DNA from: a virus
Lineage: Duplodnaviria; Heunggongvirae; Uroviricota; Caudoviricetes
IMG/VR virus record: IMGVR_UViG_2675903278_000002
Length of the DNA: 64,000 nt
Direction: 5' to 3' (one strand)
The notes beneath the pieces are model-generated. The model did not search any database. It had not been told where the DNA came from and worked only from the letters and a program-made list of their open reading frames with translations. How positions within the stretch are numbered: the stretch's first letter is position 1; every line of letters begins with the position of its first letter. This document shows, piece after piece, positions 583-63,361 of this stretch. The translations under genes and the position numbers were made by a program.

Positions 583-699
583 TTTTTGATAGATAATAAG
601 TAAGTACTGATCTATCATCTAACAGCTCGAAAGAGCCACGAATGAACGAAAGCCCAACGCGCATAGCGCCATCGGCCAAATCACAACAAGGAGAAACAC

Positions 700-1728
700 A
701 TGTCTAAGACATTACTTGATTTGCTTAACAAAACTCGTGAAGACATTGCCGCCAAACGTGGCAACAACGTTGATCTGACTCGCTTAAAAGACGGCGTCAA
801 CTATATCCGCATCTTCCCGAATAAAGACGACCCAAACGGTAAGTTCTTCCAGACTTTCGGTATGCACTACGTTAAGTATCAGAACGAGGAAGGTAAAGAA
901 GCAACCAACGCTTATATTTGTGAGCAACATACTCACGGTCGCGCTTGTCAGCTATGCGAAATGGTTATGGAAGGTCGCGCTCGTCACAAGGGTAACAAAG
1001 CAATGGAAGAACGCATCGGTCAAATGCGTGCCACTCCTCGCTACCTGGTCAACGGCATTCTTTCTGCTCGTGAGGATTTCGCAGATGCTGAGAAATGCCA
1101 GTTAATCGAGCTGCCGTCTACTGTATTCGATGATATCTGCAAAGCAATCACCGAAGACATCGCTGATGATATCGGCAATCCACTGAGCAAAGAGGAAGGC
1201 TACGCATTCCTGATTAAACGTACTGGCTCTGGTCGCGATACCAAATATGACGTCTCGCCTAAGCGTAAAGTCTACAAAGGCGATATCGAAGATAAATTCT
1301 GGAACACCCAGCATGATCTGATCGCATACGCAAATCAGGCTGATGAAACTCGTCTTCTGTCGACAGTTCGCACTATGGGTCGTCTGATTGGCATCGCTGC
1401 ACCAACTGCCGCAGCATCTGCACCAGCAATTTCCTCAACCGCGAAAACATCGGCTGCGGCACTACCTGGATTTGGCTCTGTCACTGGTCATACGGAGGGT
1501 GCGACTGCTGTAGCAACCGCTCACACCCCAGCTTCTGAACCAACCAGTCTGGTTGATGAAGAAATCCTCCGTGCCGTTGAAACTGAATTTAAACCAGAAG
1601 CAAGTTCCGCTGCCGTTGCCGTATCAGTCAAAGAGTCTGAAGCAGTCGCAGCGACATCTGTAGCAGCCGCATCTGCGACGGAAGACGAAGGTCTGGATGA
1701 CCTACTGAGAGAGCTGGACTCTCTGTAA
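700..1728 (+). CDS. single-stranded DNA-binding protein, T4 gp32-like
   Basis: gp32-like N-terminal core (IRIFPNKDD, Cys/His cluster CEQHTHGRACQLC), Ala/Ser-rich linker, acidic C-terminal tail DDLLRELDSL; start preceded by AAGGAGAAACACATG. Confidence 0.8.
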   Translation: MSKTLLDLLNKTREDIAAKRGNNVDLTRLKDGVNYIRIFPNKDDPNGKFFQTFGMHYVKYQNEEGKEATNAYICEQHTHGRACQLCEMVMEGRARHKGNKAMEERIGQMRATPRYLVNGILSAREDFADAEKCQLIELPSTVFDDICKAITEDIADDIGNPLSKEEGYAFLIKRTGSGRDTKYDVSPKRKVYKGDIEDKFWNTQHDLIAYANQADETRLLSTVRTMGRLIGIAAPTAAASAPAISSTAKTSAAALPGFGSVTGHTEGATAVATAHTPASEPTSLVDEEILRAVETEFKPEASSAAVAVSVKESEAVAATSVAAASATEDEGLDDLLRELDSL

Positions 1729-1744
1729 TCCCATTACGTGACCA

Positions 1745-1775
1745 GTAAGGCGTCTACGGACGCCTTACTTTTTGG
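1745..1775 (+). terminator. Rho-independent terminator after SSB gene
   Basis: perfect 10-bp stem GTAAGGCGTC/GACGCCTTAC, 4-nt loop, followed by TTTTT. Confidence 0.7.
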
Positions 1776-1788
1776 AAGGAATGTACCG

Positions 1789-2733
1789 GTGAATTATCTC
1801 TTCGTAGATGGCAATAGCCTGGGTTATTACCACCAACAATCTGACAAATTGCACAACGGCGAAATGGAAGTACAGGCTGCTTTCGGCTTTGTTAAGAACG
1901 TCCGTCGTTATGCCTCCATCCTCCATGCCCGACCTATGATTCTTTGGGATGGATTTAGTGACAAGCGTCGCGACTTTTACCCGGACTACAAAGCAAATCG
2001 CGACGACGATCCTGATATGAAAAAGATGAAGGAAGGCTTTGCTATCCAGAAGCCATACATCCTCAAAATGATGACCGCGCTTGGAGTTACCCAACTCATT
2101 GCAAAAGATGCAGAAGCGGATGATCTGGCCGGGCTGCTGGTATCCCGCATGGCACCGCAGCCAACCGTTGAACACATCTATCTGTTAACAGGCGATAGCG
2201 ACTGGCTTCAGTTAGTTCGTGAAAACGTAAGCTGGGTAAGCCTGCGTGAAGACGCCAAAAACAAGCAGGTTAATTTTGAGCAATTTGCGGAGCTGACAGG
2301 ATTCGCCACGCCTCGCGCATTTTTGGAAGCAAAAGCATTACAAGGCGATAACTCGGACAACATTAGCGGTGTTGGTGGCATTGGTGCTGGCGGTGCGAAA
2401 GAGCTGCTGCATGAATGGGGAAGTGTCGCAACGATGGTACGCGGCATCAACGACGGCTCAATCGTGGTTAATAAAGGGCGTCATAAGACCGCCTTCAACA
2501 AACTAGCGAAGAATGCCTTCAACGAGAAAACAGGCTGTCGAATGCTCGAAGCGTTCAAGAGAAACATCACGCTAATGAACCTGATTGAGACGAAGTTTCC
2601 GCCTACCGAAATCGAAACAATCAAAGGCAATCGTGACGTGAAAGCATTCGAGCAACTGTGCTACGAGCTGAATTTCCGTTCGTTCCTTGAAGACCTTGAA
2701 GTGTTTGTTCTTCCATTCGAAAGGTATTGCTAA
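1789..2733 (+). CDS. 5'-3' exonuclease / flap endonuclease (T4 RNase H-like, FEN family)
   Basis: FEN motifs (LTGDSDWLQL; H3TH region GDNSDNISGVGGIGAGGAKELL); start set at in-frame GTG 1789 downstream of the terminator hairpin (ORF track start 1738 lies upstream of the hairpin). Confidence 0.75.
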   Translation: MNYLFVDGNSLGYYHQQSDKLHNGEMEVQAAFGFVKNVRRYASILHARPMILWDGFSDKRRDFYPDYKANRDDDPDMKKMKEGFAIQKPYILKMMTALGVTQLIAKDAEADDLAGLLVSRMAPQPTVEHIYLLTGDSDWLQLVRENVSWVSLREDAKNKQVNFEQFAELTGFATPRAFLEAKALQGDNSDNISGVGGIGAGGAKELLHEWGSVATMVRGINDGSIVVNKGRHKTAFNKLAKNAFNEKTGCRMLEAFKRNITLMNLIETKFPPTEIETIKGNRDVKAFEQLCYELNFRSFLEDLEVFVLPFERYC

Positions 2734-2999: not shown

Positions 3000-3001
3000 T
3001 C

Positions 3002-4075: not shown

Positions 4076-4080
4076 ACACA

Positions 4081-4106
4081 AGGCGTCCACAGGACGCCTT
4101 TTTTAT
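4081..4106 (+). terminator. Rho-independent terminator after recombinase gene
   Basis: AGGCGTCC-ACAG-GGACGCCT hairpin followed by TTTTTT. Confidence 0.7.
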
Positions 4107-4167
4107 CTCTTGAAAATATATAAGTACTTACTTATTATTTTCGCATAACAACCACATAGGAAAACAC

Positions 4168-4368: not shown

Positions 4369-4371
4369 GTA

Positions 4372-5244: not shown

Positions 5245-5293
5245 TCGCAATTATCTTATTAAGAAAACAATTTGTTTAAAAGGATAAGAAAAC

Positions 5294-5774: not shown

Positions 5775-6050
5775 ATGAGAGTTTTAGTTCGAATCGTTAC
5801 CAGCACTGTCTATGACGTGTTTCCGCTTTTTATGGTCAAAGCCGATGGCCTTAACGACGAAGAAACTGACGCGCTGATCCAGCGTATTCTCGTTGAATAT
5901 ACAGGTCATGACGCTGATTCAGTGATGGTTGATGATGATGGTGTTTGTTGGCATAACGGCAACTGTTGGTACGTAGAAGAGACTCAACAAATCAGTGATG
6001 AAGATGCCGAACATCTTGAGCGTATTTTAAGCATCAGCACTTTTGAGTGA
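5775..6050 (+). CDS. hypothetical protein
   Basis: 91-aa ORF preceded by conserved leader AAAGGAAAAACACATG. Confidence 0.5.
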   Translation: MRVLVRIVTSTVYDVFPLFMVKADGLNDEETDALIQRILVEYTGHDADSVMVDDDGVCWHNGNCWYVEETQQISDEDAEHLERILSISTFE

Positions 6051-6265
6051 GTTTACAGTAAAATTTATATAAGTTAGTATCTACCTATCATGAAGATTTT
6101 TATTGAATACTTGTTACTCATCGTTTCAATAGCTTTTGTCATCGACTGCATTTTCACTGGTGTCATTCGTAAAGTCTTTTCCCCGGTGCACGACGTAGTC
6201 ATAAACGCTTTGGCTATCGTGCTCGTATTTAATTCAGCATTTGATGTAATCAAAGAGGTGGCAGC

Positions 6266-6813: not shown

Positions 6814-6820
6814 TAGCACC

Positions 6821-7303
6821 AACCACTGCGGTGAGTAGTCTGCTCACCGCATTCGTATCCAGCTCATTATCCACTGTAGTCAGTAACAAAACCTTCCTAC
6901 ATATCTGCTAACCACTGTAGCGAGTAGACAGCCTTTCATTCGCATCAAACAACCACTATGGTGAGTATTGGAGTGAGATGTCCAGCGGGTATCCACTATG
7001 GTGAGTAAGCCTTTGCTGTTTTCAGTGGATATCCACTCGCCACAGTGGATACGCTCAAAGATGAGGGCGACAACAACCACTATAGACAGTAAATTTTCCA
7101 AGATACCCAGTGACCACTAACCTCGCAGCCCTTGTTTCATCAGTGTTAGTGATCACTAACATTTAATTCAGTATTTGCATTCTACTGCCTACAGTGGTTA
7201 TCAACAGATAACGATACTCACTATAGTGGATAGCGAATTACAGATATAAGTAAGGCTCACTACAGTGGATAGTGAGCCTTACTACTAACTACAGTGGTTG
7301 GGC
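6821..7303. repeat. iteron array downstream of repA (about 10 copies of a ~19-bp repeat, both orientations; incA-like)
   Basis: repeated (A/T)ACCACT(A/G)T(A/G)G(T/C)GAGTA units at ~6821, 6869, 6910, 6951, 6991, 7026-7053 (palindromic pair), 7075, and inverted copies at ~7217, 7257, 7287. Confidence 0.75.
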
Positions 7304-8358
7304 TATTTGCGAGTCTTTGCCTTGCGCAACTCTTCGAGAAGCGCCAGTTCTTCTTTACTCAACATGACCATTTTGCCTTCTTTTTCGTCAGGCACAACGT
7401 CGATAATGTCATCTTGATTCTCATCTGGGAGGCTATATTCCGTCTCATCATTATCGATTTTTGTTGATATTTGTGCCTGGCGTAACTTTGGCCGCCTATA
7501 GTGGATGACGAAGTAGACCGAGTTTCCGCGCTTAACTTCCGTGTAATCGAGATATCCTATCTCTCGCAGCTGTTCCATAGCCTTTCTTACCGTCGCATTC
7601 TGAGTAATAGTGCGACTTGTCAGATTAAGTCTGGCGCGTAAACGGGCTAGTGATATTGGTGCCGGATCAGGCGGCAAACTTTCAATAAAAGTATAAAGCG
7701 CCTGAGCGGATTCTTTTCTTGAGAGTTCGTTTATAGCCCGGAGTTGCAGAAGAACCTTTTTGTCGAACTGGTAGAGTTCGAAAATCTTGGGATCTGCTTT
7801 CAGTTCGACCGTATCGTGCTTGACACTATATTTTGCCGTTTGCACAAGATGCGTTACGTAAAACTCATCAGAGCCTTTGCTACGGAACGAGATGGTATTT
7901 GTGGCAATACGGCTTAGCGAACTGTCCAGGCGTTTGCGTAACTTCGCTGATGACCTGGCGGTCGGAATGCCACACAGCCTTACAAACTCAACGAACGGCA
8001 ACGTGACAGTATCGCCAACGACCTTGTGTTTGGCAAACGCGTGGATTATTCCCACCCACGTTTTAAAGTCGTTATCCATATCAAGCCGAAGGCCAGAGAT
8101 CCTTATGTCTTCGTACCCTTCGGCTTTTGCCAGAGACAGCTGTTTGAGTTCAGCAGAGGCATCCATAGAGACCATTTGCCCCTTTCTTCCTCTGGATGTC
8201 GATTTCAGCGTCGGAACGAAGAGGCCCAGACGCATCAAAGCAACAGGCTGAACAGTGTTATTAGTGTTAGGAACCAACGTAACAACTTCGCCTGTCTTTT
8301 TATCTGTTTCTGAAAATGCTTCAACGATCGCTATGTTTTTATTGCCGTTTTCGCTCAT
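7303..8358 (-). CDS. repA: plasmid replication initiator RepA (P1 RepA / RepFIB family)
   Basis: 351 aa; recalled similarity to P1 RepA ([30 protein letters not shown]); flanked by iteron arrays. Confidence 0.8.
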
Positions 8359-8403
8359 TCCAAATGTCTCTTGTTATTCGACGGCTTTGGTGGCCTTTGC
8401 TGA

Positions 8404-8528
8404 TTACAGTGGATAGTAGCACTCATCACAGCGGTTATCCTACCGTCTATAGTGGTTTTTCTCCTCTCTATAGTGGTTGCTTTGCTCCCTATAGTGGATT
8501 ATTCGCTCTCTATAGTGGATATCGATCA
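8404..8528. repeat. six direct ~21-bp iterons immediately upstream of repA (origin/incC-like)
   Basis: TC(T/C)CTATAGTGG(A/T)T units at ~8404, 8425, 8445, 8466, 8487, 8508. Confidence 0.8.
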
Positions 8529-8690: not shown

Positions 8691-8800
8691 AAGGACATAA
8701 GAATCATGACTAAGAGTAGAGTTTAAAATATATCTATGTATATCAGTATGTTAATGAAGAATTAAGTCATTAAGTTATCCATAAAAGACAATGTGCTCTA

Positions 8801-8908
8801 CTCTCTACAGTGGATATATACAGCTCTCCAGAGTGGTTGTTTTACTCTTCATAGCGGTTATTCAGCTCTCTACAGAGGTTTCTTTGCTCTCCATAGTGGA
8901 TGGCAACA
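8801..8908. repeat. second array of five direct ~21-bp iterons
   Basis: units at ~8801, 8824, 8846, 8867, 8888, preceded by an AT-rich stretch (8690-8790). Confidence 0.7.
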
Positions 8909-9746: not shown

Positions 9747-10000
9747 CCCTCCAGATCGTATATTGGCGTAGATAGAATCTACGCCCCCTCAAAATAGCTC
9801 TCATAGCGTTCTACAGTGATCCAGTCTTATTTTTAGTCATACAGACAAGCAAAGTTGCGCCACGATAAATAGGTATATACTTACTTATAAATTTTGTATA
9901 TTAAGGCGCTCGTTTCATTCCTAACATACCGTTATGCATAGTTGTTTACCTCCTCATTGCTCTTAGAATTTGTATCAAAATAACCACAAAGGAAAAACAC

Positions 10001-14544: not shown

Positions 14545-14578
14545 TTTCATTGATAGGTAAGTGCTTATCTATTAACAT

Positions 14579-14610
14579 GGGCCACTATATTTAGTGGCCC
14601 TCTTTATTTG
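14579..14610 (+). terminator. hairpin terminator upstream of nrdA
   Basis: GGGCCACT-ATATTT-AGTGGCCC followed by T-rich run. Confidence 0.55.
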
Positions 14611-18259: not shown

Positions 18260-19129
18260 ATGAACTTTACCAAACTGACTGACCACCTGAAACTTGCCAC
18301 CGATCGACTCATTGGATTTAAGCCAGAACCATATGAGTTGCATGAAGGCCATGGTGTAGCCACTGAAAGTATTTACAAGATGGTCGATCAGTTTCATGAA
18401 CTCTTCCAGCATCCGAGACGCGTTATGCCGACACCAGAGCTGCTTCGTCTCCGTGCAAGCCTGATTCATGAAGAAGCTGTAGTGGAAGGTATTCCAGCCG
18501 CAATGAATGGGGATATTGAGCAACTGCTGGATGCAATGGCCGACTTTTTATACGTTGGTGTTGGTACGATGGTCGCCATCAAAGGTGGTATTTCTACCGG
18601 CATGACCTATTACACGCAGGAACAGAGCATTGATCGCTTTATGCAGACAATTTTTGTGCCCGGTAACACTGTTTTCGATGATATGGCAATGCCATTTCAG
18701 GAAGCTCGTGAGGCGTCATGTATGCTCGAAGAGCTGGCAGATAAACTTGAGAACAAGACTGTTAAGGATTCTGAGCTGATTCAGGAACTGCGCCGTGTCA
18801 TGAACAAAATCTATGTGGCGTGCATGATGACCTATCGACTGGCTGATTTCCTCGGTATCAATGTAGTCGAGCTGGTTGGCGAAATTCATCGGTCTAACAT
18901 GACAAAATTATGGCCTGCTGATGTTGAGGAACGTCGCCAGGCTGTGGCCAACTGCAAATACGACTCTTCAGATCTGGGATTCCGCCATGCTGATGGCACC
19001 GATAAGATGATCGGTTTTCGAATTTCCGATGGAAAGATTCTGAAGTCTCCAACCTATAGTGATGTCGATTTATCCTCCTTTGTTGAGCAAGCTAAAGCCT
19101 CAGCAATGTACGGAATGATCAAAAAATAA
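18260..19129 (+). CDS. putative MazG-like nucleoside triphosphate pyrophosphohydrolase
   Basis: helical segment with E..E...D..E spacing (RLRASLIHEEAVVEGIPAAMNGDIEQLLDAMADFLY); context of nucleotide-metabolism genes. Confidence 0.4.
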   Translation: MNFTKLTDHLKLATDRLIGFKPEPYELHEGHGVATESIYKMVDQFHELFQHPRRVMPTPELLRLRASLIHEEAVVEGIPAAMNGDIEQLLDAMADFLYVGVGTMVAIKGGISTGMTYYTQEQSIDRFMQTIFVPGNTVFDDMAMPFQEAREASCMLEELADKLENKTVKDSELIQELRRVMNKIYVACMMTYRLADFLGINVVELVGEIHRSNMTKLWPADVEERRQAVANCKYDSSDLGFRHADGTDKMIGFRISDGKILKSPTYSDVDLSSFVEQAKASAMYGMIKK

Positions 19130-19198
19130 TTGTAGGTAGTTATCTATCTGTGTATATTGCGTTGGCGCGTTAAATTTCTGAAACAACTATTCGTTTTT

Positions 19199-19224
19199 GG
19201 TGGCCTATGGCCACCATTTTTTTA
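19199..19224 (+). terminator. hairpin terminator upstream of thyA
   Basis: GGTGGCC-TAT-GGCCACC followed by T9. Confidence 0.6.
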
Positions 19225-19273
19225 TCTGTCTGGTCTTGTTCTCTCAATAAATGTAAACTCACGCAATGAATAA

Positions 19274-20404
19274 GTGGTTACTTATCTTTGTGAGGTTTTT
19301 GTGTCACTCCTTTTGAATCGTGAGCATACGAACGGTCAGGTAACAAACGCATCGTATGCAAAAGTTATTGAGACGGTGCTTAAAAGCGGCGTGCAGGCTG
19401 ATGATCGCACAGGCACTGGTACTTTAAGCACCTGCTACGTTCCCTCTTACTACATGCTTACTGGTGGGACTGTGCCGCTTATTTCTGGAAAGGCGGTAAA
19501 TCTTAAGCCACTGCTTGTCGAACTTGAGTGGTATCTGAAAGGCACGGGCAACATCCAATTTCTCAAGGATAACGGCGTTAAGATTTGGGATGCATGGGCC
19601 GATGAGAATGGCGATTTGGGGCCGGTTTACGGTAAGCAGTGGCGTCGATGGGAAGATACCCGCATCGTGAGCCATAGTGAATATCTGAGCAAGATCGCTA
19701 CTTTCCGTGAACGCGGGTACAAAGTCGAGGGATACCTGGGTATCAGTGAAGATCGCGTAGTGCTGTCCCGTGAAATCGATCAGCTACAGCGTATTGTCGA
19801 TACACTGCGCACGAACCCTACCGATCGTCGCATCATGCTTAACGCATGGAACGTAGGCGAGCTTGAGGATATGAAACTGCCACCTTGCCACTTTGTCTTC
19901 TCTTTGTGGAGTCGTGAGCTGGATTTTGAAACCCGTTTAACGATGGCAACTGACATTGGTCTTCAACACAGTCGCCTCGGTTATGAGTCTATCTACACCA
20001 AGATGCTATACGATCTGGAGATGGACGGCAGTGTTACTGAAACTGAACTGGATGAACTTGGAATCCCCAAACGCATCCTCAACTCCTGCCTCGTACAGCG
20101 TAGCGTAGACACTTTTGTTGGTATGCCATTCAATATTGCTGGCTATGGCATTCTCACTCATTTTCTCGCGAAGATTACGGGTCACATGGCCGGTGCATTT
20201 GTGCATTTTGGCTTTGACGTGCATTTATACAATAACCACATGGAAAGTGTGTGTGAGCTAATGAAACGACAGGCTCCAGAGCATTCAGATCCGGTCGTTA
20301 TTTTCCCTCATGAATGGTCTGAGCTGGATGATTTCAAATGGGACGATATTCTGATTCTTGGCTATGACCCTCTACCGTGGATCAAGGTTCCAGTGGCGGT
20401 GTGA
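19274..20404 (+). CDS. thyA: thymidylate synthase (ThyA family, with large insertions)
   Basis: DRTGTGT, WADENGDLGPVYGKQWRRW, catalytic LPPCH, PFNIAGY (Asn retained); start may be GTG at ~19301. Confidence 0.85.
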   Translation: MVTYLCEVFVSLLLNREHTNGQVTNASYAKVIETVLKSGVQADDRTGTGTLSTCYVPSYYMLTGGTVPLISGKAVNLKPLLVELEWYLKGTGNIQFLKDNGVKIWDAWADENGDLGPVYGKQWRRWEDTRIVSHSEYLSKIATFRERGYKVEGYLGISEDRVVLSREIDQLQRIVDTLRTNPTDRRIMLNAWNVGELEDMKLPPCHFVFSLWSRELDFETRLTMATDIGLQHSRLGYESIYTKMLYDLEMDGSVTETELDELGIPKRILNSCLVQRSVDTFVGMPFNIAGYGILTHFLAKITGHMAGAFVHFGFDVHLYNNHMESVCELMKRQAPEHSDPVVIFPHEWSELDDFKWDDILILGYDPLPWIKVPVAV

Positions 20405-29604: not shown

Positions 29605-31290
29605 ATGAATACAGCCCTTTCCATCATCGACGATGCCAACTCAAACACTGCTATCGACTATCGGCAGGAAATGAACGTCATCCACGAAATTGTGGCCGAG
29701 TGCGAGAAAGAGATCGCCTTCATGTATCAGGTACACGACTTCGTTTATGGCGACGAACGCCACAACATGATTAATCGCCTGCTGAGACTAAACCATCGAC
29801 CAGATGAAGATCGCTCGCGTTTAAATCGAGGTTGGTTGGATAAAGTCGATCTGGAATGGGTGAAACAGAATATTTGGGCCGAGTACTGGAGGAAGGTCAC
29901 GGACATGACTAACGTTTTGCTGATCATGCCAGCTTCCCGTCGAGATGAGTGGCGCGAGCAGTTTATAGAGGGCAAACAGGAAGTCATCAAAACTGACAGA
30001 ACCGGCTACCAGATGAAGGTTAAAGAGTTCGTTGGTGTACCGGAGTTCAAAGCAGAAACGGTCATACCCACGATGCTTAATTTGCTGAATGACAGGCACA
30101 AATATCTCTCTGAGCGCGTGTATGGCTTGTTTAAGGCGCTGAGTCCTGCGCACAAGACAAATAAGACAAACGGTTTCAGCGAACGTCTGATAATCGCTGA
30201 CTGCATTTCTGATTTCTGGCGGGACAGCGTTAGTGTGAACTATCGCAAAGAGGACTATATCGACGATCTGCGTGTCTTGCTTCATTTCTTCGCGCACAAA
30301 GAATTTATTACCATCAACCGCACTGCTGAGGTGCTATCAGCTGCGTATCGGGCAAACGACTGCCAGACCGGTGACTGGATGAACGTCGATGGAAATCTAA
30401 TGCGCGTGAAGATGTTCAAGAACGGCAACGTTCACTTTGAAATACATCCTGACGTGGCCTGGAAGTTGAATGAGGTGCTGGCTTACAGTATGCCTGCTGC
30501 AATCCCCGCGCCATGTCGCACCGCGCCAAAAACACGGGCACCAAAGCAGTTCGGGTTAATCCAGAAGACGATCTCCGTGCCGGTTCGCACTGCGCTTCGT
30601 GACGGGCGATTAAGCAAAGACAAAGGCGTATGGTACTTCTCTGATTCAGCTCTCCAGAAGTCGCAGGTGGAAGAGCTTGAGCGCACACTGAGCTTCATTG
30701 GCGGCGTGCAGGAGAAAAAGCACTGGCAGTTCCCGTATGAGATCGGCCATACGCTAAATACGATTGTGGCTACCGGATTAATACCGGATACAAAATCACA
30801 CCAGTTCTACCCTACCCCACGCTTGATTGCTGAGTACGTTGCCAGAGCCACTGAATTGAAGTCTGGTGAGAAGCTGCTGGAGCCTCAAGCCGGACGTGGG
30901 GATCTTCTGGCCTATATCAACGCCGATCTGGAAGATGTTACCTGCATAGAAATCGCACCTCTCTTCGCTGATATCCTGCGCGGAAAAGGGTATACGAACA
31001 CGATTTGCTGCGACTTCATAAAGTGGTCTGAGGACAACGTAGGTTATCAGTTCGACAAAATCGTTATGAACCCGCCGTACTCGCTTGGTCGTCATAGAGA
31101 GCACACGCTGGCTGCGCTGGGGCATCTGAAAGTCGGCGGGCGTCTTGTAGCAGTATTGCCGGGCACTGCGCCAATACTGGACTGGATGACGATGGATAAT
31201 TACGTTTATGCCAGAGGGAAGTCGTTTACCAACGAGTTTGAAGACACAGGGATCACAGTCAGCGTATACGTTTTCAAACGCGTTAAATGA
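29605..31290 (+). CDS. DNA methyltransferase with long N-terminal domain of unknown function
   Basis: C-terminal ~170 aa carry SAM motif I LLEPQAGRGDL and catalytic NPPYS; N-terminal ~390 aa without recognisable motifs. Confidence 0.6.
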   Translation: MNTALSIIDDANSNTAIDYRQEMNVIHEIVAECEKEIAFMYQVHDFVYGDERHNMINRLLRLNHRPDEDRSRLNRGWLDKVDLEWVKQNIWAEYWRKVTDMTNVLLIMPASRRDEWREQFIEGKQEVIKTDRTGYQMKVKEFVGVPEFKAETVIPTMLNLLNDRHKYLSERVYGLFKALSPAHKTNKTNGFSERLIIADCISDFWRDSVSVNYRKEDYIDDLRVLLHFFAHKEFITINRTAEVLSAAYRANDCQTGDWMNVDGNLMRVKMFKNGNVHFEIHPDVAWKLNEVLAYSMPAAIPAPCRTAPKTRAPKQFGLIQKTISVPVRTALRDGRLSKDKGVWYFSDSALQKSQVEELERTLSFIGGVQEKKHWQFPYEIGHTLNTIVATGLIPDTKSHQFYPTPRLIAEYVARATELKSGEKLLEPQAGRGDLLAYINADLEDVTCIEIAPLFADILRGKGYTNTICCDFIKWSEDNVGYQFDKIVMNPPYSLGRHREHTLAALGHLKVGGRLVAVLPGTAPILDWMTMDNYVYARGKSFTNEFEDTGITVSVYVFKRVK

Positions 31291-31351
31291 TAGGTAAATA
31301 CTTACCTAATTTGTGTAAGAATGTAGTTACTAAACGATAAGAGAAAAACAC

Positions 31352-40795: not shown

Positions 40796-41560
40796 TTGTT
40801 TATACAAATAAGAAAACAACTAAATAACAGATCAACGAAACGTCAACGCTTTCACCCGATTTGGTCTAAAAAATTGACGTTTTCACACATCACTTCTTAT
40901 ACCCGTAACTCTACGCAGCAGACATCGCCACAGCGTCCAATTTTCACCACAGACGACCCAACACACTACCAACAAAAACACACGCTCAAAATCGCTCCCG
41001 TTGCGTTACACAACCATATAAACAACTTATTTTCAGGCATAACAAAACAACTAAATAACACACATGCCATTTCCAAAAACAACCAACCTCTTTATGGCAG
41101 GCTACCGAAAAGACCCACCTCTTCTCCCCAGGCTACCGGACAACCAACCTAACTTTCACAGGCAATCCGAAAACATTCATACGCGCGATACCCACGACAC
41201 GCCATTACCCAAACAGCGAAGAAACACCAGAATCACTGAACCCCCAACGAAGCCTGTAACCGCAAGGCTTCTCTCAATCCCAAAAGACACGAAACAGAAC
41301 AATCACGGGAAACGCCATTACCCAACACACGAATAACTACAAAAGCCCTTCACGCACTCCAGACAAACAACTCAAACACAATAACGAAAGGAATCGCCCA
41401 CCTGCCATTACTCCATACACGGAGAAGAACAATCACCAAAACGACGAGAACACCCCATAGAAGAACCACCGCAAAACGAACGAAACCACATACACCGACA
41501 GAGAGAACAACACACCCAATTCACCAACAGAATTAGTCGCCGTATAGAACGTTCTGGAAG
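40796..41560. other. ~750-bp strongly strand-asymmetric C/A-rich, G-poor non-coding tract
   Basis: top strand dominated by A and C with few G; only low-complexity ORFs; internal ~30-bp repeats CAGGC(T/A)ACCG... at ~41097, 41130, 41159. Confidence 0.6.
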
Positions 41561-42478: not shown

Positions 42479-42616
42479 GAGTGAGGCCACCAGCACGGTG
42501 GCTTTTGTCGCTATTAACCTCCGGGCAGCGCAGCACCGTAACGATATACTTTGTGGCCGTTTTCTTACTGGTATTGTTTACGCAATTCAGAAAACAACAT
42601 GTTTAAGGATTGCGTT

Positions 42617-42946
42617 ATGTTTGCAAATATCGACATCAACCAAATCAAGAAAATGACTCAAAAAGAGTTTGACCAGTTTTATGAGTTAGAAGGTTGGTCT
42701 TCCACTCTGATCAATTCGCGGTGGGTGCTTGAGCTGATGACTCGTGATGACGCACCTGCTTTGATGATTTGCGACATGGGTGAAGATGCTGACTTTATGG
42801 ATATGAGCGAATTTTGTGTGGACACATACAACCGCAGCCAGAAGTACTACTTCACATGCGATAGCGAAAATGACGTGATTTCTAAGGTCTATCTTCACCT
42901 CGTCCAGCATTGGGACGTTCAGGAGTTTCTTGAAGTATTCGAGTAA
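42617..42946 (+). CDS. hypothetical protein (cassette)
   Basis: 109 aa from ATG 42617; motif A at 42588-42606; hairpin after stop. Confidence 0.5.
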   Translation: MFANIDINQIKKMTQKEFDQFYELEGWSSTLINSRWVLELMTRDDAPALMICDMGEDADFMDMSEFCVDTYNRSQKYYFTCDSENDVISKVYLHLVQHWDVQEFLEVFE

Positions 42947-43445: not shown

Positions 43446-43474
43446 AGCCCCGCCATCCTTACGGGGCTTTTTTG
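43446..43474 (+). terminator. Rho-independent terminator
   Basis: AGCCCCG-CCATCCTTA-CGGGGCT then TTTTT. Confidence 0.65.
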
Positions 43475-43537
43475 TATTGTAAGTACATACTTATGATCAT
43501 AGAATATAAAAATAACCAAAACACTACGGAGAGTGAA

Positions 43538-45042: not shown

Positions 45043-45079
45043 AGATTAAGGCCACCAATGCTGGTGGCCTTAAATGACC

Positions 45080-45180
45080 ATCCTGTTTCCCGCAGGCTAA
45101 AAACACCAACCTCTTACCTCCAGGCAACCGACAAACCCACCTGTTCCCGTCCGGCTACCGCAACTTTCCACTTTGACGCC
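45080..45180. repeat. C/A-rich tract with three ~30-bp CAGGC(T/A)A(C/A)CG repeats (short copy of the 40796-41560 tract)
   Basis: units at ~45093, 45121, 45152 resembling those at 41097-41170. Confidence 0.55.
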
Positions 45181-48096: not shown

Positions 48097-48621
48097 TCAA
48101 AAAGGCAAAATTCGTTCAACCCAATCGAACAAAACAACTATTTTTCTACCGTTCTCGACACGTAGTGTAACCTGACAAGCATCTGCGCCTGCTGACACCC
48201 CCTCAATTTCACGGCCATCCGCCATGTACACCCTTATAGATTTGTTTGCTTTGTAGGCTTGGTTGCAAATTGCAAAAAAATCGCGGCGTGATGGCCGATT
48301 ATCGACATAATCAGGGTGAACTGTTAGTCGACCTTTGAAATCGTGAGCGATACTGTCAACCACACCTGATTCAATTGTACTAATGCGTTCAAGTGGGAGC
48401 CTTATACGATTTTCTTTGTCAAAAGGGGCTGGGCAAAGGTCAACTTTGTTACGAGATGGCATGAGGCCATAAACGTACATGCAAAACGCCTGGCCATCTT
48501 CGAGAGTGACCCTTACAGGAATTTGTTCTCTGCGCCAGAACATCAGTAGTTTTTCAACGTTAGTGTAATCTCGCGGCCAGAGTTCAGCTTGGATACCGTA
48601 GGTAATATCTTTGGTTGTCAT
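48097..48621 (-). CDS. hypothetical protein
   Basis: 174 aa from internal Met chosen to avoid overlap with upstream lipoprotein gene; start uncertain. Confidence 0.4.
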   Translation of the reverse strand: MTTKDITYGIQAELWPRDYTNVEKLLMFWRREQIPVRVTLEDGQAFCMYVYGLMPSRNKVDLCPAPFDKENRIRLPLERISTIESGVVDSIAHDFKGRLTVHPDYVDNRPSRRDFFAICNQAYKANKSIRVYMADGREIEGVSAGADACQVTLRVENGRKIVVLFDWVERILPF

Positions 48622-48625
48622 ATCA

Positions 48626-49048
48626 TCACAGAGTTGTTGGCAGAATGTCGATGTCACCAGAATTGCTGGTAAACACCCTGAACGCTTTTGTGTCTCCATT
48701 CTTCAGAGTCGTTTCTCGCTCTTGACGAGCGGGGTTTAGAGCACATAAACCTGCACCTTCAAGAGATGCACCCACAATTAATTCTCCGGCATTTAAATGG
48801 AAAGTCGCTTTTTCGCCTGTAGCCAGTTTTGCGACAGTTTCGCCGTTGATGAAAATGGAAGCATCACATCCAGCTCCTACAAAACCTGTGTCTCTCATTA
48901 CCACCAACGTAGCTGGCGCTGCGCTTTGATACTTGAACACTTTGGCCTGCGGTGCTGGTTTGGCGTCATGGATTGATATTGGGTGTGATTGGCACGCGGC
49001 AAGCATCAACACTGGTAACGTTAGTAGAGGGAGAAGCGAGTATTTCAT
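48626..49048 (-). CDS. hypothetical lipoprotein
   Basis: signal peptide with lipobox (LMLAAC) from Met at 49048; 140 aa. Confidence 0.5.
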   Translation of the reverse strand: MKYSLLPLLTLPVLMLAACQSHPISIHDAKPAPQAKVFKYQSAAPATLVVMRDTGFVGAGCDASIFINGETVAKLATGEKATFHLNAGELIVGASLEGAGLCALNPARQERETTLKNGDTKAFRVFTSNSGDIDILPTTL

Positions 49049-50957: not shown

Positions 50958-51039
50958 AAACCTCTTTCCTTAGTGCCTTTTGTATGTTATTTGGCTATTA
51001 TAATAAGTAAGTGATTACTTAGTGGATTGTAGCAATAAA

Positions 51040-54228: not shown

Positions 54229-54300
54229 ATTTAAAGACCTGCATCTGTATATATAAATAATAAGTAACTTATTAAATATATACGGAAGCAGGCTTCGTAA
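54229..54300. promoter_or_regulatory. GC-clamped hairpin element with TATAAATA core (copy of the 24751-24809 element)
   Basis: CTGTATATATAAATAATAAGTAACTTATTAAATATATACGGAAGCAGGC; followed by two motif A copies (54328-54344, 54353-54370) upstream of TerS. Confidence 0.45.
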
Positions 54301-55041: not shown

Positions 55042-56297
55042 TGGCAATCCCGTCCTCGCTCAGTCTTGTGCAACTGCATTCTGGACAGATGAAAGTCTTC
55101 CAGTCTCCGCATCGATTTAAAGTTGTTTGTGCTGGTCGACGCTGGGGAAAATCCCGGTTGTCGATCTCCACTATTATTCGTGCGGCGGCAAAGGAAAAAA
55201 AGCAAAGAGTCTGGTATGTCGCTCCTACTTACCAGATGGCTCGCCAGATTTTGTGGGACGATCTACAGGAAGTTCTGCCTCGTAAGTGGGTTAGGAAAAA
55301 GAACGACACCACGATGACAATCGTGTTGAAGAACGGTTCGGAGATCGCCCTCAAAGGTGCTGATAAGCCTGACACTCTGCGCGGCGTAGCGTTGCATTTT
55401 GTAGTGCTTGATGAATTTCAGGATATGAAGGCTGACACCTGGTACAAGGTGTTACGACCTACTCTTTCATCGACACGCGGCGGTGCACTGATCATTGGTA
55501 CGCCAAAAGGCTTCTCGGAATTTCACAAACTGTGGACTATAGGCCAGAACGTAGAGCTGCAAACAAAGGGACAGTGGAAGAGCTGGCAGTTTGTAACTGC
55601 CGATTCTCCGTTTGTACCTACGGCGGAAATTGAAGCTGCTAAGAACGATATGGACCCGAAATCGTTCGCTCAGGAGTACCTGGCGAGCTTTGAGAACATG
55701 TCCGGGCGCGTTTACTACCCGTTCGATCGTAACGTGCATGTAAAACCGCTTCAGTTCAACCCTCGGTTGCCTATATGGGTAGGGCAGGACTTCAACATTG
55801 ACCCGATGTCTTCAGTAATTTTGCAACCTCAGCCAAATGGTGAGCTATGGGCAATTGATGAATTGGTGCTCTTTTCCTCTAACACGGCAGAGGTTTGTGA
55901 TGAGCTTGAGAGACGCTTCTGGCGCTGGAAATCACAGATAACGGTATTTCCAGATCCGGCAGGTGCTTATCGCCAACATGCTCGCGGGGAGTCTGACGTC
56001 GACATATTCAAAGAGAAGGGATTCTTACGTGTCGATTATTCGAAAAAGCACCCGCCAATTGCGGATCGTGTTAATGCTGTTAACCGAATGCTGATGACCG
56101 CATCTGGAGATATCCGGCTGTATATCGATCCGAAGTGCAAGCATTTGATTGATTCACTGGAAAAAGTCATCTACAAGCCTGGAACACGAGATATGGATAA
56201 GACAGGTGGCATTGAGCATAGTGCAGACGCATTGGGCTATCCAGTACATCGTAGGTATCCAGTCAAAAACCGTGTTATTCTTGGTGGTTCTCGATAG
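55041..56297 (+). CDS. terminase large subunit
   Basis: Walker A VVCAGRRWGKS, Walker B-like VVLDEFQD, C-terminal nuclease-type region; 418 aa. Confidence 0.8.
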   Translation: MAIPSSLSLVQLHSGQMKVFQSPHRFKVVCAGRRWGKSRLSISTIIRAAAKEKKQRVWYVAPTYQMARQILWDDLQEVLPRKWVRKKNDTTMTIVLKNGSEIALKGADKPDTLRGVALHFVVLDEFQDMKADTWYKVLRPTLSSTRGGALIIGTPKGFSEFHKLWTIGQNVELQTKGQWKSWQFVTADSPFVPTAEIEAAKNDMDPKSFAQEYLASFENMSGRVYYPFDRNVHVKPLQFNPRLPIWVGQDFNIDPMSSVILQPQPNGELWAIDELVLFSSNTAEVCDELERRFWRWKSQITVFPDPAGAYRQHARGESDVDIFKEKGFLRVDYSKKHPPIADRVNAVNRMLMTASGDIRLYIDPKCKHLIDSLEKVIYKPGTRDMDKTGGIEHSADALGYPVHRRYPVKNRVILGGSR

Positions 56298-56323
56298 GTA
56301 AGTAATTATCTAAGGTTATTCAA

Positions 56324-57898
56324 ATGGAATTGAACGACAAACAAATTAAGGATCTGGTGGCGCGACGCCACCCGGAATACGAAAAGAAAAAAGAACATTG
56401 GGACTTCCTCGCCAGCACTTACGCTGGCGGGCGTGGTTGGTTTACAGACAATATCTTTCGTTACTTTAAAGAGGGAGATCAGGAGTTTAAGGAGCGAGTT
56501 GAACGTGCTTATCGCTTCAACCACACTCGTGAGGTGGTAAACCTCATCAACAAATATCTCTTTAAAGAAGACATTCATAGAAATATCGAAGAGGCACCAG
56601 AGCAGATCCGCAATTTCTGGAAACGTGCGACTCGCCAGAATGCCTCTATTGACTCATTTATGGCCGCTATTGATTTGCAGTCGTCTATTTACGGTCGCAT
56701 ATGGGTTGTTGTCGATAGCACGATGAGTGGTGATGTTGAGTCAGTAGCTGACGAGAAAAAGAAAGATGCTCGCGCCTACGCCTACTGGATTTCACCTCAG
56801 CAAATGCTGGATGTGGCATGGGACGACGACGGGAATATGTTGTGGGCGTTAATTGTGGAAGTCGCTCGTGATGACGCAGATCCTTTTACTTCTACAGGTC
56901 AGGAATACCAACGTTATCGTCTGTGGACACAAAACGAGTGGTATCTGTTCCGTGAGGAAGTGAAGAAGGGCGCTGGTGGAGCAGGTCGCCGTCAGGCAAA
57001 AGTTATTTTAGAGGATAGCGGTGAGCATAATCTCGGCGTAGTTCCTGTGTTTCCTGTTGATTGTATTGGAGAAAGTGAATCACCGTATTTCAGCCCATCG
57101 TTGATCGATGATATCGCTTATCTTGATCGTGCGGTTGCAAACTATCTGTCAAACCTTGATGCCATTATTCAGGATCAGACATTTAGCCAGTTGGCTATAC
57201 CGGTACAGTCGCTTTTACCTGGTGATGAAAACCACACTAAAGTGCTTGAAATGGGCACAAAGCGAGTATTCACCTACGATTCTGAAGGTGGAAACCAGCC
57301 GTTTTATCTGTCACCAGACCCGAAACAAGCTCAGATGATCATCACTACGATTAAGACGGTGATTAACGAAATCTACCATTCAGTTGGTGTAGCTGGTGAG
57401 CGAACGAAGCAGGACAACGCACAGGGAATCGATAATTCATCTGGTGCCGCAAAAATGTATGACTTCCAGCGTGTAAATAGCTTGCTTGTCACAAAAGCAG
57501 AGCGTCTGGAAAGGGCTGAACGCCAAATCATGCTACTGGTTGCGAAATGGATGGGGGTAGATCTGGACGAAGACCACTCTTTAATTGCGTATCCAGAAAG
57601 TTTCGATATTCGTGGCCTTACTGATGAATTTTCTGTTGCCGAGAAACTGTCATTACTTCAGGCACCGGACTCTGTACGTCGTCACCAGATGGAAATGCTT
57701 ATTGAGAAGATTTTCCCGAACATTACTGAGGCGATGAAAAAGGAATTTGATAAAGATCTCTTGAATTTTCCTCCAAAAAATGATCTAAATACCCTTGAAA
57801 ATAAGTCAGTACTTACTTATGATCGTGGTGCAGCCCAAGAAAGCGGGCAAGATCAACCCCGAGGGAATGGGGACTCATCTACTCAAGAGAACGAGTGA
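56324..57898 (+). CDS. portal protein (putative)
   Basis: 524 aa, position between TerL and scaffold/capsid genes. Confidence 0.6.
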   Translation: MELNDKQIKDLVARRHPEYEKKKEHWDFLASTYAGGRGWFTDNIFRYFKEGDQEFKERVERAYRFNHTREVVNLINKYLFKEDIHRNIEEAPEQIRNFWKRATRQNASIDSFMAAIDLQSSIYGRIWVVVDSTMSGDVESVADEKKKDARAYAYWISPQQMLDVAWDDDGNMLWALIVEVARDDADPFTSTGQEYQRYRLWTQNEWYLFREEVKKGAGGAGRRQAKVILEDSGEHNLGVVPVFPVDCIGESESPYFSPSLIDDIAYLDRAVANYLSNLDAIIQDQTFSQLAIPVQSLLPGDENHTKVLEMGTKRVFTYDSEGGNQPFYLSPDPKQAQMIITTIKTVINEIYHSVGVAGERTKQDNAQGIDNSSGAAKMYDFQRVNSLLVTKAERLERAERQIMLLVAKWMGVDLDEDHSLIAYPESFDIRGLTDEFSVAEKLSLLQAPDSVRRHQMEMLIEKIFPNITEAMKKEFDKDLLNFPPKNDLNTLENKSVLTYDRGAAQESGQDQPRGNGDSSTQENE

Positions 57899-59708: not shown

Positions 59709-59781
59709 TCAGTGTAGTAGATAAGTAGTTATCTATGTTAAAGGGTGGGCTATACGCCCACCCTTTTTGTAGGAGCGAGAA

Positions 59782-61181: not shown

Positions 61182-62014
61182 TGGCGCAGATCGACTCGTA
61201 TCGTAGCGGTGAAGCTGTTTCCCTTTCATTTGCCTTCAACGTGCTGGATATCGAATCTGCTACCTACACAGTAAAGGACAGCACCGGGGCTATTCTCGTT
61301 GATGGCGAGCCGCTAGAAATTACCAGCGGTCAAATGTCGATTCCGGTTGTCGTGTCGGCTGAATATAACCAGCTCTCTGAGAAAGAACGCGATCTGCGGT
61401 ACGTCATTGTGAAGGCTGTTGCATCGGGTCTGACGCATGAAGAGCGGCAAATGTATGTTCTGCTGAATAGTTTTGAACTGTCGATACCAGAACAGTCGTT
61501 TGCAACTGTCGCTGATGCTCAAATGCAAGCGATCGATATGCTGAATGGGGACACTTTGCTGTCGGATGGTGAAGGCTTAATGCGCAAGCGTCTCATTGAG
61601 GCTACCAGACGAATTAAAACTTTACCGTTCTCAATCCGCAAAATTCTACGTATCGACTTTGACCGATACGATCGCCCTCAAAATATGCTGAATGTGTATG
61701 ACATTCCGTGGGGAGCAGATGGAGCGTACCGGCATGATTTAGTCGATTGGGAAAAGATGACGCAGGAGAAGTTTGAAGAGTTCCCTGACTACTTCAAAGA
61801 AGCGTTGATGCTTGCCGTTGTCAACGAAGCGTGTGAGATCGCAAATGGCAATGATGTTGCCGCAGCACGAGAGGATGGCATTTTGTCAGAGTCAATCGGT
61901 GAAACAACCAACATGTACCGTACCGGTAAAGCTGCAAACGTGCATGTGGCTCGCAGTACCTGGCGCTTGCTGGTCAGTTACATCAACAACCGTATGATTG
62001 TTCGCCGTGCGTAA
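61181..62014 (+). CDS. hypothetical structural-module protein
   Basis: 277-aa ORF, start overlaps upstream stop. Confidence 0.5.
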   Translation: MAQIDSYRSGEAVSLSFAFNVLDIESATYTVKDSTGAILVDGEPLEITSGQMSIPVVVSAEYNQLSEKERDLRYVIVKAVASGLTHEERQMYVLLNSFELSIPEQSFATVADAQMQAIDMLNGDTLLSDGEGLMRKRLIEATRRIKTLPFSIRKILRIDFDRYDRPQNMLNVYDIPWGADGAYRHDLVDWEKMTQEKFEEFPDYFKEALMLAVVNEACEIANGNDVAAAREDGILSESIGETTNMYRTGKAANVHVARSTWRLLVSYINNRMIVRRA

Positions 62015-62438
62015 CGCCAGTCGCATTATTTACTTTTGGTCGAAAGGGTTTTTGGCCAGTAATGAGAGCGACCGACAACAACAGAGAGAGAGCATGAATA
62101 TTTCGTGGCAAACAGAAATTGCGATCTACCGCTTTGGCGCAAAGAACGTTTACGGCGAGGCGCAATTACAATTCGTCAGGAAGACGAATGTCGGCGTGGT
62201 TAAGTTCGAACAGAGTAATGAGAAATCGTCAGTTCGTGCTGATAGCTCTGGTAGTCGTGGTAAGGCGAGTCTGGAGCTGTTTGATGCTGTGTTAGTTGTC
62301 CCTTTAGAAGCGGCTGTACAACTTGATGATGTGCTGATCCTTGAAGGTCAAAAATTAAAGGTGTCCAGTGTTCATCGCCGCTGGGGGCTACGAGGAAGAC
62401 CTGGGCATCTTGAAGTAGGGGCGAATATATGGGTCTGA
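61998..62438 (+). CDS. hypothetical structural-module protein (head-tail connector candidate)
   Basis: 146-aa ORF. Confidence 0.4.
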   Translation: MFAVRNASRIIYFWSKGFLASNESDRQQQRESMNISWQTEIAIYRFGAKNVYGEAQLQFVRKTNVGVVKFEQSNEKSSVRADSSGSRGKASLELFDAVLVVPLEAAVQLDDVLILEGQKLKVSSVHRRWGLRGRPGHLEVGANIWV

Positions 62439-62902
62439 AATACGATGCGCATCAGTTCAAACGTGCGGGGAATCGACTCAACAACAGCCAGAAAGCATTT
62501 AAGCGATATCTTATCCGGGACATGGAAAAGCTGGCGCGTTTGGTTGAGCGTCTCAGCCGTGCAATGGCCCCGCTGGAAACCGGATCTCTGGAGACAGCCA
62601 TCTTTGCCAGGGTGATTAAAGAAGGTTATTCAGGGCTGCGTATTGAGCTTTCTGTGTCTGGAGCAAAACCACGTCAGGGGCATCCGGGCGTAGAAGTAGG
62701 TGACTATGCTAAGTACATGGAGCTGGGTAAATACCGACTCGGTTATCTTTCTCGAATGAAGAACGTGACAAACCCACCAATTGCCGGTGTTAAACCCCGT
62801 GTTGGGCCACACTTTCTGGAAAGAGCGGTGGAAATTAGCGAGAAGCAGTTCTCAGAAGCGATTCTTGAGGCTGCCAGAAAAGCCGGATTTACGAGAGGTT
62901 AA
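62429..62902 (+). CDS. hypothetical structural-module protein
   Basis: 157-aa ORF. Confidence 0.45.
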   Translation: MGLKYDAHQFKRAGNRLNNSQKAFKRYLIRDMEKLARLVERLSRAMAPLETGSLETAIFARVIKEGYSGLRIELSVSGAKPRQGHPGVEVGDYAKYMELGKYRLGYLSRMKNVTNPPIAGVKPRVGPHFLERAVEISEKQFSEAILEAARKAGFTRG

Positions 62903-62903
62903 T

Positions 62904-63287
62904 GTGTTTATTGAAGCGTTTGCAAGTTTGATGCAGAAGGCAAAGATTGGCACGGTCGGGACTGACATTTTCTGTCACTACTTGCCTGCCAATGTGAAAT
63001 CTGGCGTCCTGCTTATTAACCCAAATACCGGCATCAGCATCGATCATGAGCTACAGGGCTTTTATCACGAATCATTCACAATCATTGTGCGTGGTTCGTC
63101 AATTACTACGACGGTTGAGAAAGCCCATAAAATCATTGAGATGTTTCCAGTAGAGGAAACGGAATCTGGTGGTGTTTATTTTCGACTTGTACGACCGATG
63201 GCGATGCCAATCATTTATCCCAAAAATGATGGGGCATTAATAGAAGCAGGCATTCCTGTTGAATTTGCTGGCTATTTATTGAATTAA
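62904..63287 (+). CDS. hypothetical structural-module protein (tail completion candidate)
   Basis: 127 aa from GTG 62904 (RBS GAGAGG), 1 nt after upstream stop. Confidence 0.4.
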   Translation: MFIEAFASLMQKAKIGTVGTDIFCHYLPANVKSGVLLINPNTGISIDHELQGFYHESFTIIVRGSSITTTVEKAHKIIEMFPVEETESGGVYFRLVRPMAMPIIYPKNDGALIEAGIPVEFAGYLLN

Positions 63288-63361
63288 CTCAATTGGTAAG
63301 TATATACTTACTATTAGCGCAATGAATGCGTAGAATTAACGGAAAAAGGAGTTTTCCATCA

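Follow-up and report, generated by a model that had tools for sequence, protein, structure and literature searches.

What is the role of the short AT-rich palindromes that recur in the intergenic gaps of the virus record IMGVR_UViG_2675903278_000002, and what might bind them? The stretch of this record analysed here, a window of 64,000 nucleotides, represents an SSU5-like phage-plasmid of Escherichia coli, with 98.5% identity to Escherichia phage CMS-2020a, 99.4% to phage Cyrano (the phage-plasmid pLF82 carried by E. coli LF82) and about 80% to Salmonella phage SSU5 over the 13 kb at its right end. An earlier note on the window had listed 13 copies of this palindrome, here called motif B, and had suggested that they represent a second regulator or promoter class which possibly separates temporal classes of genes. 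We found that the motif is very probably the site of a phage-encoded DNA-binding regulator. Comparison with related genomes further suggested, with moderate confidence, that the palindromes are dispersed operators of a putative XRE-type helix-turn-helix (HTH) prophage repressor encoded beside the integrase.

The palindrome and the genes it precedes

Aligned on their dyad axis, the copies gave a 22-bp palindromic consensus with the two arms GATAGGTAAGT and ACTTACCTATC, of which the window holds 14 strong and four to five weak copies. All 13 positions listed before carried the described sequence, and 11 of them were strong copies of 21-29 bits (starting at 595, 4115, 6068, 9868, 14552, 24104, 26319, 31289, 51002, 56293 and 59716). 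At 19132-19148 the sequence was present as a mere weak half-site (10.6 bits), and the palindrome at 63296-63311, a perfect one of 16 bp, had arms spaced 4 bp wider than those of the other copies. Two strong copies (19265-19286 and 57800-57821) and four weak ones (at 25144, 43474, 54252 and 24767) were absent from that list. Enrichment over random expectation was strong on all three measures used: TAGGTAAGTA with up to one mismatch was found 14 times (1.7 expected), the 22-mer consensus with up to six mismatches 12 times (0.14 expected), and matches of at least 16 bits to a symmetrised matrix 14 times (0.01 expected from 200 second-order Markov simulations). Whole-genome scans detected 20 sites of at least 16 bits and 27 of at least 12 bits in Cyrano; SSU5 has its sites in the corresponding gaps, 22 to 26 of them according to the cut-off, so that a whole genome holds about 25 copies. 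In Cyrano, 19 of the 20 sites lay outside annotated coding sequences in a genome that is 87% coding (binomial p ~3e-16). The motif is thus a real, conserved and functionally constrained feature.

The genes that the palindromes had been said to precede were essentially right: ssb, sbcD, nrdA, thyX (called thyA before), dam, portal, Ig-like and major tail. Right too was the separation of the motif from the other dispersed palindrome, GAAAACAAnTTGTTTTC (presumed motif A, 17 sites), with which it showed zero overlap. A division into temporal classes did not hold up: the motif precedes genes of replication and nucleotide metabolism (ssb, sbcD, nrdA, thyX and dam, and in Cyrano also the helicase and primase blocks) and genes of packaging, head, tail and lysis alike. 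What the motif divides is lytic genes from accessory, maintenance and lysogeny-expressed genes, which are without it. The scans of whole genomes found no strong site in the accessory (moron) region or in the plasmid-maintenance region, and only one of the 14 lysogeny-expressed genes of Cyrano (expression data from PMC9928086) had an upstream site, CYRAN_81, with a weak copy.

We compared the window with 80 IMG/VR loci centred on the terminase gene and with complete plasmids. Sites occurred in orthologous gaps across these relatives, namely between terL and the portal gene, at the 3' end of the latter and downstream of the capsid gene, and their centres were specific to the lineage. Type 1 (AAGTACTT; AAGT/ACTT) was found in SSU5, Cyrano, Klebsiella elements and Yersinia pMT1, i.e. 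in elements of E. coli, Salmonella, Klebsiella and Yersinia. Type 2 (AGnTAnCT; AGnT/AnCT) was found in seven IMG/VR loci and a Cronobacter plasmid, with zero type-1 half-sites among them, and type 3 (ATTTAAAT; ATTT/AAAT) in five IMG/VR loci and a Pectobacterium plasmid. An Acinetobacter plasmid had the centre GTCAGTACTGAC and carried the half-sites TATAGTCAGT and ACTGACTGAT at at least 14 intergenic sites in 50 kb. Such a concerted change of all sites in a genome argues for a trans-acting factor encoded by the element itself. A host factor is an unlikely binder, since the motif shifts in concert between elements of closely related hosts.

A candidate repressor beside the integrase

The candidate for this factor is an XRE-type HTH protein of 126-154 amino acids (aa) with an HTH_3/HTH_19-like fold call; no other product of the module next to the integrase has a DNA-binding domain that could be recognised. 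Cyrano's version is CYRAN_45 (annotation 'putative repressor'), whose gene is transcribed in LF82 lysogens (PMC9928086). Homologues were present on 865 PLSDB plasmids of the SSU5-like family, and a search by sequence returned none with a solved structure. The nearest relative of the window, CP053388, carries a 98.4% identical copy.

The promoter of the repressor gene (P_rep; TTTACA-16-TAATAT-C) carries the motif core GGTAAG(T/C)ACTTACC directly after the -10, about 30 nt before the ATG. The core GGTAAGYACTTACC was found at this place in five lineages of type 1 with repressors of 58-100% identity, namely Cyrano, two further IMG/VR lineages (repressors 98% and 70% identical), Klebsiella and pMT1, where it reads AGTAAGCACTTACC. 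The immunity regions of the Acinetobacter and Cronobacter plasmids contained three copies and one copy, respectively, of their own variant. An operator at the transcription start of P_rep occupies the classic position for negative autoregulation. In addition, the predicted recognition helix differed with the motif type: it is YKNANNLSLIKSG in Cyrano, pMT1 and a further type-1 locus (L129), YKNPNILSLIKKG in Klebsiella, YENANNLSNIKTG in type 2, YSSHNNVSMLKSG in type 3 and FKRPNVLSMIKSG in Acinetobacter. With four types only, this correspondence is suggestive.

SSU5 itself lacks the integrase-repressor block and yet keeps the sites. Close plasmid relatives carry a block of about 3 kb exactly there, between the tRNA region and cobT (SSU5 positions 42500-42800; locus L005). 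The loss looks recent because the flank of one block-carrying relative is 99.4% identical, and the sites retained in SSU5 are therefore uninformative and no counter-example. SSU5 would fit a recent derivative that lost its lysogeny module. The repressor circuit may still operate in the degenerate prophage pMT1 of Yersinia pestis, for this plasmid has retained the core copy at P_rep as well as palindromes of type 1. In pMT1 (locus L141, 24833-27589) the F1 capsule locus (caf1) adjoins the integrase/repressor module.

Other proteins were considered as binders of motif B and rejected. The identity of a FljA-family protein (48097-48699, - strand) does not track motif type, being 40% in the type-1 loci L067 and L078 and 53% in type-2 loci, and the protein is absent from the type-3 flanks. 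For three candidates near terL, namely the ParB-like pair, an 88-aa phrog_900 protein and terS, divergence was likewise not type-specific.

Among known systems the regulon of the P1 repressor C1 is functionally the closest, with no shared family membership. P1 is likewise a plasmid prophage of about 100 kb with many transcription units, in which one immunity repressor acts on many scattered operators that overlap sigma-70 promoters of lytic genes, with copies at the repressor's own gene (traits in part annotated in the P1 record NC_005856). The P1 operator differs in being an asymmetric 17-mer bound by a monomer, as opposed to the 20-22-bp palindrome and the XRE-type HTH candidate described here, and the late genes of P1 are switched on separately by Lpa, whereas here the same site precedes head, tail and lysis genes. 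A tblastn search of the window, Cyrano, SSU5 and the Cronobacter plasmid gave no C1 homologue (E 6 or worse). Lambdoid and 434 CI/Cro systems share with our candidate the HTH_3/HTH_19-like fold call, a dyad-symmetric operator with a 14-bp core, a copy over the repressor promoter and, perhaps, variation of the operator along with the repressor lineage, which heteroimmune phages show. They differ in having two operator clusters at the immunity region instead of some 25 single sites over 100 kb, and the candidate described here has no S24 self-cleavage domain.

Promoter context of the sites and rival explanations

Following the annotation of Cyrano, the order of genes in the window is ssb, then the recombination, replication-initiator, nucleotide-metabolism and accessory regions, and then terminase, portal, capsid and the first tail genes. 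The copies of the palindrome and the promoter-like sequences at them are as follows.

595-616: AATAAGTAAGTACTGATCTATC, between a uvsY-like gene and ssb (700-1728); 27.9 bits; kept in Cyrano and SSU5; overlapped by promoter-like TAGATA-17-TATCAT at 590-618 on the + strand.
4115-4136: in the spacer of the promoter TTGAAA (4110-4115)-17-TATTAT (4133-4138), a 10/12 match; downstream of a terminator (4080-4100) and upstream of membrane/SPFH genes; 27.8 bits.
6068-6089: TATAAGTTAGTATCTACCTATC, after the gene at 5775-6050; 21.0 bits; overlapped by promoter-like TTTACA-17-TAGTAT and TTTATA-16-TATCAT.
9868-9889: 112 nt upstream of sbcD (10001); 25.2 bits; orthologues in SSU5 and the Cronobacter plasmid, the latter with a type-2 centre.
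14552-14573: GATAGGTAAGTGCTTATCTATT, the best copy, between a ruvC-like gene and nrdA; 29.4 bits; overlaps the promoter TTGATA (14550)-17-TAACAT (14573-14578), which abuts a terminator hairpin at 14579-14600.
19127-19148: weak half-site after a mazG-like gene and before a terminator (19198-19216); 10.6 bits.
19265-19286: just upstream of thyX; 21.3 bits; orthologues in Cyrano, SSU5 and the Cronobacter plasmid.
24104-24125: 10 nt upstream of the dam start codon; 27.9 bits; Cronobacter plasmid orthologue with a type-2 centre; promoter-like TTGCCA-17-AAAAAT (24078-24106) ends on its first bases.
25144-25165: weak copy with a good left half only, after the gene at 24891-25145; 16.3 bits.
26319-26340: overlaps the RNase H stop codon, upstream of the gene at 26469; 25.0 bits; kept in SSU5.
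31289-31310: overlaps the stop codon of a DUF4942 gene, upstream of an ead-like gene (31352); 27.5 bits; identical in SSU5.
43474-43495: GTATTGTAAGTACATACTTATG, a weak copy of the accessory region, downstream of a terminator; 12.9 bits; promoter-like TTGTAA-17-TAGAAT.
51002-51023: in the divergent gap between a uvsW-like helicase operon (- strand) and a parB-like operon (+ strand); 23.3 bits; orthologues in SSU5 and the Cronobacter plasmid; followed by a TATTAT hexamer on the - strand.
56293-56314: in the 26-bp gap between the terminase large subunit and portal genes, containing the terL stop codon; 23.6 bits; most of the 80 related loci have a copy here, with lineage-specific centres.
57800-57821: within the portal gene at its 3' end, upstream of DUF6651/capsid genes; 27.4 bits; fills the spacer of the promoter TTGAAA (57795)-17-TATGAT (57818-57823), a 10/12 match.
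59716-59737: between the major capsid gene and a terminator hairpin (59743-59764), with an Ig-like gene next; 22.3 bits; orthologues found.
63291-63312: wide-arm variant (perfect palindrome 63296-63311) upstream of the major tail gene; 20.4 bits; same variant in SSU5; promoter-like TTGAAT-18-TATACT at 63279-63308.

Sigma-70-like promoter calls on the gene strand lay over the copies at 595, 4115, 6068, 14552, 43474, 57800 and 63291, and one ended on the first bases of 24104. Six to eight of the approximately 16 window sites overlap a full -35/-10 pair in gene direction, the rest being without a recognisable -35. Full pairs over sites pointed in gene direction six times and in the opposite direction never in the window; among 79 sites from five genomes the counts were 22 and five. 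At two promoters, 4110-4138 and 57795-57823, the operator lies in the spacer and the hexamers are kept in relatives. The former retains a TTGAAA/TTGCAA-17-TATxxT frame in Cyrano, SSU5, pMT1 and the Cronobacter plasmid with a lineage-specific operator in its spacer, and the latter, TTGA(A/T)A-17-TAT(G/C/T)AT, is kept in 77 of the 80 loci with a 17-bp spacer that switches operator type. About one third of the sites show a gene-directed full -35/-10 pair, and we prefer to read the site as an operator in or beside sigma-70-type promoters. Of the second regulator or promoter class proposed before, a separate motif tied to transcription-unit starts stands, and a promoter class of its own is the less likely reading.

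The palindrome does in several cases stand ahead of a terminator hairpin, as had been noticed (14552, 59716 and the weak copy at 19127). In the gap between ruvC and nrdA the operator supplies the -35 (TTGATA), and the -10 (TAACAT or TATCAT) abuts the hairpin in three lineages, the geometry of -35, operator, -10 and hairpin at 14573-14600 being kept in SSU5 and the Cronobacter plasmid. A similar arrangement of a predicted -10 abutting a hairpin was seen at 59734-59764. A transcript starting about 7 nt downstream of the ruvC/nrdA -10 would begin within the 5' arm of the hairpin, so that read-through from upstream would be terminated and the new transcript would escape the terminator, which might account for the order of palindrome, terminator and gene.

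On the operator reading, the genome would be split into many short transcription units, and each lytic unit would open with an operator over or beside a sigma-70-type promoter, placed in the -35/-10 spacer, supplying -35 and -10 itself, or lying at the transcription start. In the lysogenic (plasmid) state the repressor would occupy all of the approximately 25 sites and simultaneously silence the genes for replication, recombination, nucleotide metabolism, packaging, head, tail and lysis. Where a copy stands in a very short gap and has no recognisable -35, it would probably serve as a roadblock or mark a weak promoter, and the core copy at the start of the repressor transcript, presumably of lower affinity, would provide negative autoregulation. 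What we infer in this scheme is which protein binds, the sign of regulation where a -35 is lacking, and the role as roadblock.

Several observations weigh against the repressor as binder or against a uniform operator function. The repressor gene lies outside the window and is known from relatives. Its promoter copy shares the 14-bp core only, without the outer GATA/TATC arms, and we found no clear copy in the immunity region of the type-3 Pectobacterium plasmid. The covariation of helix and operator comprises four motif types, too few for statistics, and the Klebsiella helix has three positions unlike those of the other type-1 helices. A site of 20-22 bp is long for a small XRE dimer, and the sites may instead, or in addition, be bound by the 70-aa protein that is encoded divergently or by some other conserved factor. 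About two thirds of the sites have no recognisable -35. Several sites stand 1-12 nt ahead of a start codon (portal, dam and a 59-aa open reading frame at 6090) and therefore not all of them can be classical promoter operators; those in short gaps without a -35 are probably roadblocks or weak promoters. Finally, a TAnnnT hexamer at the edge of the site showed no strand bias (47 versus 45 between the two sides), so its likeness to a -10 is part of the palindrome and no independent evidence for a promoter. We consequently dropped an asymmetric edge -10 as proof of promoters and kept full -35/-10 pairs alone.

We further propose, tentatively, that the lytic programme of the whole SSU5 super-family (Y. 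pestis pMT1, pHCM2-like Salmonella plasmids, Klebsiella and E. coli phage-plasmids and Acinetobacter relatives) might be run by one layer of about 25 identical palindromic operators whose central 6-8 bp have diversified together with the repressor helix into 'immunity types', the sites doubling as promoter elements, roadblocks and promoter/terminator junctions. If the operators are read correctly, changing the centre AAGTACTT to AGCTAACT would affect repression, and if the types are immunity types, operator type would predict cross-immunity and co-residence of these widespread plasmids, resistance genes being carried by some of them. Among Enterobacteriaceae, SSU5-like phage-plasmids are common and include Y. 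pestis pMT1, Salmonella plasmids and Klebsiella elements. A full-text literature search, which did not extend to the older pMT1 and pHCM2 genome papers, returned no mention of the motif or of SSU5 operators, and a description of lysis-lysogeny control in the SSU5-like family was not found in the searchable literature. The analysis provides a genome-wide operator map with a named candidate repressor, and this map can also serve as a simple annotation marker for the starts of transcription units in SSU5-like genomes. The map also makes it possible to ask by what means the prophage is silenced and how the SOS induction that ciprofloxacin causes in Cyrano (PMC9928086) is transmitted when no S24 domain is present, and further whether the operator types are immunity groups and whether the degenerate prophage pMT1 still uses the circuit.

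The alternative that survives best, which we nevertheless consider rather unlikely, is that a different phage-encoded factor binds the sites: a lytic activator that replaces the -35 in the manner of P1 Lpa, a Cro-like lytic repressor encoded in the divergent early operon, or the two ParB-like proteins in a role like that of KorB, the global regulator of plasmid RK2. In each case the copy at the repressor promoter would shut the repressor off. Most sites are indeed without a -35, SSU5 keeps all of its sites without an XRE repressor, and one site stands directly ahead of the parB-like operon, with two ParB_N-domain genes downstream of 51002. In P1, 11 late promoters depend on Lpa, and these combine a -10 with a 9-bp inverted repeat at about -22 (PMC10695390). 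Here too, promoters otherwise poor in a -35 carry an inverted repeat in the interval from the -35 position to the -10, and the centre AAGTACTT resembles the -22 box AAGTTACTT of the P1 late promoter LPhot. The repeat is, however, 22 bp long here as opposed to 9 bp, its centre lies 7.5-10.5 bp before the -10 as opposed to 14 bp in LPhot, and it is not confined to late genes, since early-type and late genes are both preceded. Homologues of Lpa and C1 were not found by tblastn (E 1 or worse); the only weak match to Lpa in a genome search (E = 1) was CYRAN_116, a variable gene that is replaced by a lipoprotein gene in the window, and homology was rejected. The small divergent proteins have no recognisable DNA-binding domain, and the loss of the repressor in SSU5 appears recent. 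A site between consensus -35 and -10 hexamers with the optimal 17-bp spacer, or at the +1 of P_rep, is in a repressing position, which to our knowledge holds for every known class of factor except MerR. The occurrence of some sites in promoters with consensus -35 boxes points to repression and not to activation.

We judged it improbable that the sites are mainly roadblocks to elongation or aids to termination that block read-through in the prophage. The stoperators bound by gp71 of mycobacteriophage L5 would be the model: L5 has dozens of repressor sites, which lie in small gaps between genes across the whole prophage and not only at the immunity region, a distribution that the sites described here share. 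Many copies begin no more than about 10 nt from the stop codon of the preceding gene or include that codon (terL, RNase H, DUF4942), some gaps (portal, dam) are too small for a 5' untranslated region, and terminator hairpins follow several copies (14552, 59716). Stoperators are, however, asymmetric 13-bp sites that act on elongation in an orientation-dependent manner and are biased in orientation, whereas the sites described here are palindromic with symmetric flanks and often embedded in promoters, one third of them in conserved directional promoters of the sigma-70 type. A roadblock role is compatible with the operator role and probably additional to it, and would need the same bound protein.

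Least probable are hairpins acting at the RNA level, i.e. as processing, stabilising, weak-terminator or translational-operator elements of polycistronic transcripts: the intercistronic position, a possible stem of 9-10 bp, T-runs after several copies and the extra central bases of the 63296 variant, which a hairpin would accommodate more easily than a dimeric protein site, speak for them, but compensatory covariation is absent, the stems are AT-rich unlike those of terminators, the primary sequence and not the pairing is kept across the approximately 25 paralogous sites, and the motif core is found at the repressor promoter too. Mirrored positions varied independently (at positions 5/18 in Cyrano GC 5, AT 6, GT 4 and AC 4), and G:U-compatible mismatches on the sense strand were no commoner than A:C (G:T versus A:C totals of 17/13, 25/23 and 20/23 in three genomes), with 'other' mismatches equally common. 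Each arm matches RATARGTAAGT on its own. Independent arms without a G:U bias fit a duplex DNA site for a symmetric dimer and not base pairing, and on these pair-type counts we discarded the reading as RNA hairpin or terminator.

Other repeats in the window

The second dispersed palindrome, GAAAACAAnTTGTTTTC, gave 17 matches in the window where 0.7 were expected. Its 17-mers lie at 5263, 16994, 27216, 27945, 32486, 39354, 39405, 41018, 42590, 43074, 43977, 44727, 45212, 54329 and 54354. In Cyrano the copies lie mostly 10-39 nt ahead of a start codon, among them those of the helicase gene, cobT, nrdB, tciA, parA, terS (two copies) and many accessory genes, and this proximity suggests a translational operator or one close to the ribosome-binding site. 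The 200-aa FljA-family protein encoded at 48097-48699 (- strand; Pfam PF03614, 'repressor of phase-1 flagellin', E = 2.5e-84) is 78-82% identical in Cyrano and SSU5 and additionally gave a weak signal of likeness to Hfq. FljA blocks the translation of fliC mRNA, and the family acts on mRNA (PMC2652032). The protein of the window may therefore be the binder of motif A or a silencer of host flagellin. The leader of Salmonella fliC presumably contains CAAGTTGT, which resembles the centre of motif A.

Three further kinds of repeats were observed. Arrays of repeats of about 20 bp (CTATAGTGG core, 21-bp spacing) at 6818-7091, 7216-7275, 8399-8523 and 8800-8906 flank repA (7303-8358, - strand) and have the appearance of plasmid replicon iterons. 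A 57-bp element, CCTGC(T/A)TCTGTATATATAAATAA...TATACGGAAGCAGGCT, occurs in two copies (24753-24809 and 54238-54294) and is a long AT-rich palindrome closed by GC clamps, whose interior gives weak matches to the motif-B matrix. The copy at 54238-54294 is located just upstream of terS and spans the start point of the Cyrano and SSU5 records; the element may be a packaging or termini-related site. Tandem units of about 30 nt (ACCAACCTCTT...CAGGCTACCG) were present as two triplets in the accessory region, at 41076-41172 and 45071-45164.

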